64,000 bases of DNA from a virus, in IMG/VR virus record IMGVR_UViG_3300032132_000001, positions 234,573 through 298,572 of that record; one strand, written 5' to 3'. The position numbers were made by a program, and so were the translations under genes. This document shows, piece after piece, positions 56,187-56,259 of this stretch (position 1 is its first letter; each line of letters opens with the position of its first letter). The notes beneath the pieces were generated by a model, which saw only the letters and a program-made list of their open reading frames with translations, was not told the DNA's origin and did not search any database.

Positions 56187-56259
56187 CACCTTTAGCTCAG
56201 TTGGTAGAGCAGGAGCCTCTAAAACTCCGGGTCGCGGGTTCGAGTCCCGCAAGGTGCCT
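56187..56259 (+). tRNA. tRNA with an apparent CUA anticodon (putative amber suppressor)
   Basis: Full cloverleaf: acceptor GCACCTT/AAGGTGC (7 bp), D-arm GCTC-AGTTGGTA-GAGC, anticodon arm GGAGC-cuCUAaa-ACTCC (C31.A39 mismatch; U33 and A37 correct), T-arm GCGGG-TTCGAGT-CCCGC. No CCA is encoded. Confidence 0.55.

Follow-up and report, generated by a model that had tools for sequence, protein, structure and literature searches.

A phage tRNA with a CUA anticodon probably decodes a conserved early amber codon in a neighbouring Pth2-like gene

In the 64,000-nucleotide stretch of viral DNA analysed here (positions 234,573 to 298,572 of IMG/VR record IMGVR_UViG_3300032132_000001; hereafter the window), a transfer RNA (tRNA) gene with the anticodon CUA stands upstream of a gene for a Pth2-like protein, whose reading frame is preceded by a very short leader that ends in an in-frame TAG. 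We consider it likely, with a probability of roughly 75%, that this dedicated tRNA decodes a programmed early UAG that gates the neighbouring gene, rather than serving a genome-wide recoding. The tRNA, the in-frame TAG, the conservation of this TAG, its co-location with CUA tRNAs, its sequence context and the fold of the protein were all computed directly. The sequence covered consists of the 64-kilobase (kb) window and about 7.5 kb of its flank, from a genome of at least 177 kb, the length of the Logan contig that carries the window.

As the first of three candidates in the window, ARAGORN places a 73-nucleotide tRNA at 56186-56258 on the plus strand, with the anticodon CTA starting at position 34, and the Rfam model RF00005 matches it from end to end (65 bits against a gathering score of 29, E = 7.7e-12). 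The first-pass annotation had described a clean cloverleaf with a cuCUAaa loop and with U33 and A37 in place; this is what both programs find, although its coordinates (56187-56259) were one base off. The anticodon loop reads C32-U33-C34-U35-A36-A37-A38, so that U33 is present and position 37 is a purine. GCACCUU/AAGGUGC forms the acceptor stem, C73 serves as discriminator base, and the CCA end is not encoded. The anticodon stem, GGAGC/ACUCC, contains a C.A mismatch at the pair 31-39, because of which the free-energy fold shows a stem of only 4 base pairs and a 9-nucleotide loop. Despite this mismatch, CUA is retained at positions 34-36 by both tRNA callers, which settles in favour of CUA the anticodon check that had been proposed beforehand. 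Among 68 related tRNAs, found with homologs of the gated gene (together called the module below), 14 likewise have A.C or C.A at 31-39, and the anticodon arm of the window tRNA is identical in the CUA tRNA of Salmonella phage Arash. The tRNA is thus a genuine elongator-type tRNA with anticodon CUA. An initiator tRNA was rejected, since the tRNA has a G1-C72 pair instead of the C1xA72 mismatch, and its anticodon stem is GGAGC/ACUCC instead of one with three G-C pairs at the bottom. A pyrrolysine tRNA was rejected as well: the D-loop has 8 nucleotides with GG, the variable loop has 5 (GGGUC), a TPsiC loop is present, and the anticodon stem has at most 5 pairs, whereas the tRNA-Pyl shape combines a 6-base-pair stem with a 3-nucleotide variable loop and a small D-loop that lacks G18G19. 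The label "Pyl" was given by ARAGORN because of the anticodon only, and at window positions 49.9-71.5 kb neither pylS nor pylBCD was seen among those called genes that have a Pfam hit.

The tRNA shares its D-arm, variable loop and T-arm exactly with bacterial tRNA-Lys, 69 of the 72 cellular tRNAs that share this body are tRNA-Lys, and the anticodon loop equals the Lys-CUU loop with a U36A change. The tRNA-Lys-like body suggests lysyl-tRNA synthetase as the charging enzyme, with lysine as a first guess for the inserted amino acid in this phage; C73 is atypical for tRNA-Lys. No match to the exact tRNA with the anticodon left free was found in viral, genome or metagenome collections, and a comparison with the tRNAs of Ro60-linked relatives gave no isotype assignment. 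A terminator-like hairpin (Table 1) closes the upstream gene (55487-56065) and ends 8 nucleotides 5' of the tRNA. Of the "phage tRNA cluster" that had been assumed around it, this is the only member in the window that reaches the Rfam tRNA threshold, and no other Rfam match in the window attains its gathering score.

A Shine-Dalgarno-like (SD) motif, the codons ATG-CCT-GAC-ACC and a TAG lie 515 nucleotides 3' of the tRNA, and they are followed in frame by 110 codons of a Pth2-fold frame (Table 1). None of ATG, GTG and TTG occurs in the first 41 codons after this TAG. The frame was left uncalled by the gene caller of the source contig, and no rival standard-code call takes its place. A 167-codon open reading frame (ORF) that begins shortly after the tRNA ends, in the same frame, at the gate TAG, and with suppression a 278-residue Pth2-like fusion would be made too. 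The slot between tRNA and gated gene is variable, and in other phages it holds unrelated ORFs with their own stops; one of these carries a motif that, judged by eye, resembles the Cys/His motif of HNH proteins. Downstream, a companion ORF begins at an ATG that shares bases with the TGA stop of the Pth2-like frame (ATGA) and is preceded, at 7 nucleotides, by an AGGAGG of its own. The companion has no Pfam match, but hhalign joins it (95%, E = 2.7e-8) to a conserved family of about 100 residues that is encoded downstream of the Pth2-like gene in 25 loci.

The leader is conserved among homologous loci. The initial search gave four stand-alone homologous proteins of 95-104 residues, and in all initial contigs the called GTG or ATG start was preceded in frame by an SD motif and ATG, one to five further sense codons, a TAG and four to six conserved codons. 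These four to six codons are kept as protein (H-F-Y-V or Y-V-Y-V) while the codons themselves differ. A CUA tRNA stood just upstream in three of the five initial contigs, the other two contigs being shorter than 2 kb. Together with 126 loci from an alignment-based scan of metagenomes and viral contigs, the five initial contigs make up a set of 131 loci, in which everything was counted locally on the retrieved DNA. Going upstream from the homology, the in-frame stop met first is a TAG in 114 loci, a TGA in 11 and a TAA in 6; for open frames in the same loci the TAG background is 28.8% (binomial p = 7e-44). An ATG stands in frame no more than eight codons before the TAG in 106 of the 114 TAG loci, and in 93 of them ATG, GTG and TTG are all absent between the TAG and the start of homology. 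After removal of redundancy, 85 leaders remained. An SD-like motif precedes the ATG in 62 of them, and 52 consist of exactly ATG-NNN-TAG. Codons for Thr (34) and Leu (22) are the commonest immediately before the TAG. After the TAG comes A in 41 leaders, G in 35, C in 8 and T in 1, so that a purine follows in 76 of 85. Amber suppression is favoured by a purine on the 3' side. The true stop of the gene, in contrast to the leader codon, is rarely TAG (4 of 83, with TGA in 50 and TAA in 29). The in-frame stop is therefore conserved and protein conservation continues past it, a pattern that points to programmed readthrough.

The same SD-ATG-x-TAG leader is carried by an HD-domain family, whose members are either free-standing or fused before the Pth2-like domain. 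Free-standing HD genes with the leader were found in three contigs (L233 at about 4293, L303 at about 3402 and L253 at about 6688), and HD-Pth2 fusions with it in phages XacN1 (L316, 2449), Xoo-sp13 (L326, 4449) and RAS14 (L327, 4449). The amber gate may therefore control a second enzyme. Beyond the HD genes, no enrichment of other TAG-gated genes around the module was detected, the candidates being 8 with TAG, 6 with TAA and 6 with TGA. The window itself contains neither an HD-domain partner nor one resembling a release factor. In a related phage (L186 5764-6453; L187 2749-3438), a 229-residue protein of the latter kind is encoded two genes 3' of the gated Pth2-like gene; it is shortened, and it has PCRF and RF-1 domains, PPT at the PxT position of release factor 1 (RF1), and GGQ. 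To find an RF1-type factor beside an amber suppressor was unexpected.

CUA tRNAs accompany the gated gene. In the homologous loci, CUA leads the anticodons with 86 occurrences, the next having 30, and a CUA tRNA lies within 4 kb in 79 of the 114 TAG loci, always on the strand of the gene. By contrast, none of the 67 tRNAs in 88 control loci of related phages (534 kb) has this anticodon. Among the non-redundant loci, the CUA tRNA is found at most 250 nucleotides upstream in 23, 251-1500 nucleotides upstream in 11, up to 1500 nucleotides downstream in 18 and more than 1500 nucleotides away in 5 (3 upstream, 2 downstream); the remaining 28 lack one in the locus, and 16 of these are short contigs. 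The module tRNAs comprise 68 distinct sequences, and the loop is CUCUAAA in 45 and UUCUAAA in 14. Their acceptor stems and bodies are unrelated, and some have U1, which would give a weak first base pair.

A tblastn search found the gene in 45 GenBank phage records, of which 15 were read, and 13 of these 15 have the same kind of leader. It is ATG AAG TAG in XacN1, RAS14 and the uncultured LR756500, ATG AAG AAG TAG in Xoo-sp13, ATG GCA CAA TAG in both GAP32 and CBB, ATG ACG CAC TAG in Serratia phage BF, ATG TCT CAC TAG in fHe-Yen9-04, ATG GCT CAC TAG in Kaldavass, ATG TTG TAG in RsoM2USA, ATG ACT TAG in ME3, ATG CTG TAG in Arash and ATG ACT CAC TAG in the uncultured LR756511. Suppressor tRNAs, annotated or detected, lie 0.4-4 kb from the gene in ME3, GAP32, BF, CBB, fHe-Yen9-04, Kaldavass, Arash and LR756500. 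The copy in phage RaK2 has its own ATG and no leader, and RaK2 has no suppressor tRNA. The hosts of cultured phages with the module include Cronobacter, Pectobacterium, Serratia, Yersinia, Erwinia, Acinetobacter, Salmonella, Xanthomonas and Stenotrophomonas. In BF, fHe-Yen9-04 and RsoM2USA the Pth2-like gene has no annotation, and in GAP32, CBB and Arash it is annotated in truncated form (records JN882285, KU574722, KY630187, LT960551, MG752970 and OQ632216, in which it is unannotated or 5'-truncated), apparently because of the leader TAG. It is also unannotated in several Erwinia phage records from the tblastn search, whose leaders were not read. The CUA tRNA of Arash is annotated as tRNA-Phe.

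The protein encoded after the TAG is predicted to have a Pth2 fold. The Pfam match of the window protein starts at profile position 3, directly after the TAG; its score to PF01981 (PTH2), 15.7 bits, is below the cut-off of 23, and the same profile matches 56 of 76 sampled family members at E <= 0.01 (best E 1.5e-6). A profile search collected 2154 relatives of the protein. The AlphaFold2 model has a mean predicted local distance difference test (pLDDT) of 91.4 and a predicted template modelling score (pTM) of 0.84, and its strand beta-1 consists of residues 2-9, right after the TAG, so that a start at the next ATG (residue 42) would cost beta-1 and alpha-1. When the model was compared with the Protein Data Bank (PDB) by Foldseek, the top 14 matches were all Pth2-superfamily folds, mostly Pth2 enzymes, with template modelling (TM) scores of 0.6-0.78. 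Entries 2zv3, 3erj, 1q7s, 1wn2 and 1xty matched with TM scores of 0.7-0.78 and probability 1.0, and the Pth2 enzymes matched include MJ0051, AF2095, Bit1, PH1539 and Sso Pth2. In place of the GKGK loop the family has a conserved QQ..Q..HA motif. Because the GKGK loop is missing we call the protein "Pth2-like" and its hydrolase activity putative.

TAG is used specifically, CUA tRNAs are co-located, the context favours suppression, the gene avoids TAG as its own stop, alternative starts are absent, and leader and tRNA are both missing from RaK2. Taking all this together, we infer that the UAG is decoded by the phage tRNA. Ribosomes would initiate at the ATG at 56761, read three sense codons and meet the UAG at 56773, which is codon 5 here and codon 3 in most relatives. 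At this codon RF1 and the charged phage tRNA would compete, and a win of the tRNA would yield the 110-residue Pth2-fold protein, with its first beta-strand directly after the UAG; the companion ORF, through the ATGA overlap, would probably be translated too. The output of Pth2-like protein would then track the expression of the suppressor tRNA, its charging by a host synthetase and its success against RF1. As the UAG follows a di- to tetrapeptide, aborted attempts would be cheap. Work on minigenes indicates that termination at so early a codon is slow, and a modest suppressor could therefore act here while sparing most normal gene ends. Which amino acid is inserted is probably irrelevant, because the leader position is not conserved and the bodies of the module tRNAs are unrelated. 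As for its purpose, the gate could couple a peptidyl-tRNA clean-up enzyme to suppressor activity, or it could sense RF1 or termination capacity. A wider proposal, which we regard as tentative and rather doubtful, is that an amber switch is common to large phages of actinobacterial to proteobacterial hosts, in which a dedicated suppressor tRNA competes with RF1 at a UAG two to seven codons into the message, the output of Pth2-like or sometimes HD enzyme reports termination capacity or suppressor activity, and the enzyme may feed back on the peptidyl or aminoacyl form of the same tRNA in a homeostatic loop like that of prfB.

A different role for the tRNA would be a general or late-gene recoding of TAG (genetic code 15) acting on genes outside the window, or that of a standard-code precursor of a recoded lineage. 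Suppressor tRNAs are strongly tied to recoded phages and occur also in some standard-code relatives, where they have been seen as possible precursors of recoding (Borges et al., bioRxiv 10.1101/2021.08.26.457843), and the window is only a part of the genome. The window belongs to a T4-like huge phage, with a Gp23-type capsid protein, a Gp20-type portal and an intein-split large terminase. Its terminase, portal and major capsid genes, of the class usually recoded, are intact, end in TAA and have no in-frame TAG, which speaks against the late-stage recoding that the first-pass annotation had offered as one option. Its remark that the standard code leaves long ORFs intact holds for the window, of which standard-code ORFs cover about 95%, and reading TAG as sense brought no greater gain in open frame there than reading TGA or TAA. 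TAG is a normal stop in the window (TAA 31, TGA 15 and TAG 11 of 57 plus-strand genes), and the G+C content of about 50% is not low. No release factor or synthetase gene was found at window positions 49.9-71.5 kb, nor any release-factor-like match in the window, and the cultured phages with the module carry standard-code annotation. Within the window, the DNA is thus not that of a stop-codon-recoded phage, and we think recoding quite improbable as the role of the tRNA. Since the window shows no general recoding, use of the suppressor must be selective, as had been supposed; the survey of TAG usage and TAG-joined ORFs proposed for finding such use, run on the window, gave no recoding signal, and a candidate target turned up beside the tRNA instead.

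It is also conceivable, if unlikely, that the TAG is the real stop of a mini-ORF of 2-8 codons, that the Pth2-like protein is made by reinitiation or from a non-canonical start, and that the nearby CUA tRNA has another job or none. With its ATG-NNN-stop form the leader does resemble a classical minigene; in 25 of 85 leaders the TAG is followed by ATT, ATC or ATA; and roughly one homolog in five has a GTG or ATG within a few codons of the TAG as a possible start. One such case is mycobacteriophage Cane17 (ATG TAG GTG), in which the SD motif is placed for the GTG, and which nevertheless has a CUA tRNA 250 nucleotides downstream, so that the case is ambiguous. But any stop would serve a mini-ORF, yet TAG is used in 114 of 131 loci; CUA tRNAs are co-located with the gene and missing in control loci; translation cannot start at most of the codons that follow the TAG (GTA, GAA, ACA, AAC and others); the window lacks a canonical start for 41 codons; and RaK2 has lost tRNA and leader together. 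We give still less credence to the proposal that the tRNA is a weapon of host sabotage or a general suppressor, which would read through UAG stops of the host or rescue nonsense mutations of the phage, with the Pth2-like protein cleaning up stalled complexes and the TAG incidental. UAG suppression is reported to harm bacteria (PMC11848022), Pth-type enzymes recycle peptidyl-tRNA (Iyer et al., PMC7824862), and XacN1 has just 18 TAG stops in 592 genes; an incidental TAG, however, would not persist at codons 2-8 in more than 100 divergent homologs with changing flanks, and the window genes are not depleted in TAG stops. Such a role would moreover be compatible with a gate and is no true alternative to it. 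Least credible to us is a decoy or replacement tRNA against host defences that target tRNA-Lys (anticodon nucleases such as PrrC or PARIS), which would escape cleavage through its CUA anticodon. The tRNA-Lys arms of the window tRNA would fit, but CUA cannot read lysine codons, the other module tRNAs have unrelated bodies and in some cases U1, and no nuclease-related genes were seen nearby.

Several observations do weigh against the decoding of the leader UAG by a dedicated tRNA, in addition to Cane17 and the possible starts after the TAG. In 12 non-redundant TAG loci that extend for at least 1.5 kb to either side, a CUA tRNA is missing within 4 kb, and in XacN1 the suppressor tRNAs are far from the gene, in the terminal repeats. 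The spacing of 12 nucleotides between AAGGAG and ATG in the window is long. The Pth2-like family is without the GKGK loop that carries the canonical Pth2 catalytic lysine, and profile alignments show a 2-residue gap at GK. Nearby back-up stops are not in excess after the 11 genes that end in TAG, and an efficient suppressor would therefore extend those proteins. Finally, the tRNA may have targets elsewhere in the genome, given the share of it that was covered.

The proposed gate shares features with several known systems. As in the recoded phages (crAss-like, Lak and Agate phages among others, with TAG as Gln and TGA as Trp), a phage tRNA with a stop anticodon would work in a standard-code host, some phage genes depend on the tRNA, and the tRNA genes themselves are in standard code. 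In those phages, however, many genes, above all those for structure and lysis, contain many in-frame stops and the codon is depleted as a terminator, whereas in the window one codon in one small gene is concerned and TAG is still an ordinary stop. Similar, too, are the "orphan" suppressor tRNAs of XacN1, Stenotrophomonas phage Summit, GAP32, CBB and BF, which are CUA tRNAs of normally coding large or jumbo phages. The same module is present in several of these phages, and the target proposed here is the leader TAG of an unannotated or truncated gene. The XacN1 paper describes two CUA tRNAs and an in-silico readthrough of 18 amber stops that revealed no target, and the Summit announcement reports that none was found for its suppressor tRNA. 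In these searches, translation was continued through annotated stops. The presence of PTH2 in jumbo phages has been noted without mention of stop codons (PMC7824862). In the literature covered, which excludes most subscription journals, no paper was found that connects the suppressor tRNAs of phages with an amber codon of a Pth2-like gene.

The pyrrolysine system (pylT) likewise has a dedicated CUA tRNA near genes with a single conserved in-frame amber codon; in contrast to it, no special amino acid or dedicated synthetase is evident here, the tRNA is canonical (G18G19, TPsiC, 5-nucleotide variable loop), and the UAG is part of a leader that is not conserved, rather than of an active site. Like prfB, which encodes release factor 2, the gated gene would have an early in-frame stop in a gene of translation and an output set by release-factor competition, but in prfB a +1 frameshift provides the escape and the gene product itself is sensed, while escape by a cognate suppressor tRNA would apply here. 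The bar minigenes of phage lambda also are ATG-NNN-stop mini-ORFs tied to peptidyl-tRNA hydrolase biology. They are free-standing and toxic when Pth is limiting, whereas the leader here is in frame with a Pth2-like region and accompanied by a stop-reading tRNA. Very short ORFs terminate poorly and shed peptidyl-tRNA. In synthetic amber gates, such as a suppressor-tRNA feed-forward loop in E. coli (PMC7969014), an early-amber gene needs a co-expressed suppressor tRNA; those gates are engineered, and the one proposed here would be natural and widespread.

If the proposal is correct, the amber switch would account for the orphan suppressor tRNAs found in jumbo phages that use the standard code, since a conserved one-codon target beside the tRNA would answer the question of their missing target, and a stop codon would have one programmed sense use in a genome that is not recoded. 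Such a gene-specific amber decoding by an ordinary tRNA would be natural and could be an intermediate toward stop-codon reassignment. It would also correct a systematic annotation error in GAP32, CBB, BF, fHe-Yen9-04, RsoM2USA and Arash, and natural pairs of tRNA and leader would be ready material for synthetic translational gates.

Table 1. Positions of the CUA tRNA, the gated locus and a neighbouring tRNA-like RNA in the window.
Feature	Position	Strand	Basis or remark
Terminator-like hairpin, 15-base-pair stem and T-rich tail	56142-56177	+	Terminator scan, sequence
CUA tRNA	56186-56258	+	ARAGORN, Rfam, fold, comparison with cellular tRNAs
ORF, 167 residues	56272-56775	+	Gene call on source contig, ORF list
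Shine-Dalgarno-like AAGGAG	56743-56748	+	Sequence
Leader codons ATG CCT GAC ACC (M-P-D-T)	56761-56772	+	Sequence
In-frame TAG, putative decoding site	56773-56775	+	Conservation; next base A (purine at +4)
Predicted Pth2-fold protein, 110 codons and TGA (57106-57108)	56776-57108	+	Pfam, AlphaFold2, Foldseek
Companion ORF, 98 residues	57105-57401	+	hhalign to downstream family
tRNA-like cloverleaf, anticodon arm of about 55 nucleotides, CCA	59123-59235		Fold

Translation was carried past every TAG stop in the window, and the one case that stood out was the gate TAG. The TAG at 45970, which had been put forward as a possible target, is an ordinary boundary between tandem paralogs: ORFs 44890-45972 and 45973-47052 (28% identity, E = 7e-25) are joined in frame as TAGATG, and the second has its own ATG directly after the TAG, so that it was rejected as a readthrough site. 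Neither paralog has a Pfam or PHROG match. The junction is unremarkable because in-frame neighbours without an intervening stop are similarly common after TAA (5 of 31) and after TAG (3 of 11). Three further junctions were rejected. After the TAG at 37071 (ORF 36534-37073), the next gene has its own GGAGG and an ATG at 37131; the TAG at 49182 precedes a DAO oxidoreductase gene that has its own ATG and a Rossmann motif at the N-terminus; and the TAG at 30876, before a gene resembling that of the Major Vault Protein (MVP), is probably an ordinary stop, with AAGGAG and GTG downstream.

The nearest GenBank relative of the phage is a 595-kb uncultured phage with 40% capsid identity, and relatives in IMG/VR, whose contigs are as long as 408 kb, reach a capsid identity of 86%. 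Neither megablast nor the neighbouring glycosyltransferase led to a related phage. The large terminase gene (11071-14484) contains an intein with a LAGLIDADG homing-endonuclease domain.

A TROVE/Ro60 gene for 545 residues (59873-61510; Pfam E = 1.8e-15) lies downstream of an array (58690-59850) of Y-RNA-like modules, in which folds give the order T-arm, acceptor, D-arm. Matches to YrlA at 59279-59348 (E = 6e-7) and 58906-59021 (E = 7e-5) have 41.5 and 34.4 bits against a gathering score of 69, and a weak match at 58694-58765 is also below gathering. A strong terminator at 59818-59845 closes the array. In relatives, large tRNA arrays and transfer-messenger RNA are found at this position. The element at 59048-59122, which had been listed as a second, suppressor-like tRNA, is a clean cloverleaf with an encoded CCA and does have the 8-nucleotide anticodon loop described (UGAAACAU). 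It scores below the Rfam tRNA gathering threshold, sits in this array of tRNA-like and Y-RNA-like elements upstream of Ro60/TROVE, and no link of it to stop codons was found. An ARAGORN call of tRNA-Pro at 59241-59312 was dismissed as an artefact that borrows the T-arm of a permuted YrlA-like module. Other non-canonical tRNA-like RNAs were seen at 57411-57585 and 59554-59621; the non-canonical types include one with an insertion of about 100 nucleotides between the halves of the anticodon stem and one that has a T-arm and acceptor without an anticodon arm. At 30906-33593, an 895-residue protein has the shoulder domain of the Major Vault Protein (E = 8e-25) and a vault repeat, and its start is probably the GTG after AAGGAG, not the listed TTG. 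An MVP-like protein, a TROVE protein and tRNA-like RNAs thus occur in the same phage; the eukaryotic vault partner TEP1 has a TROVE domain.

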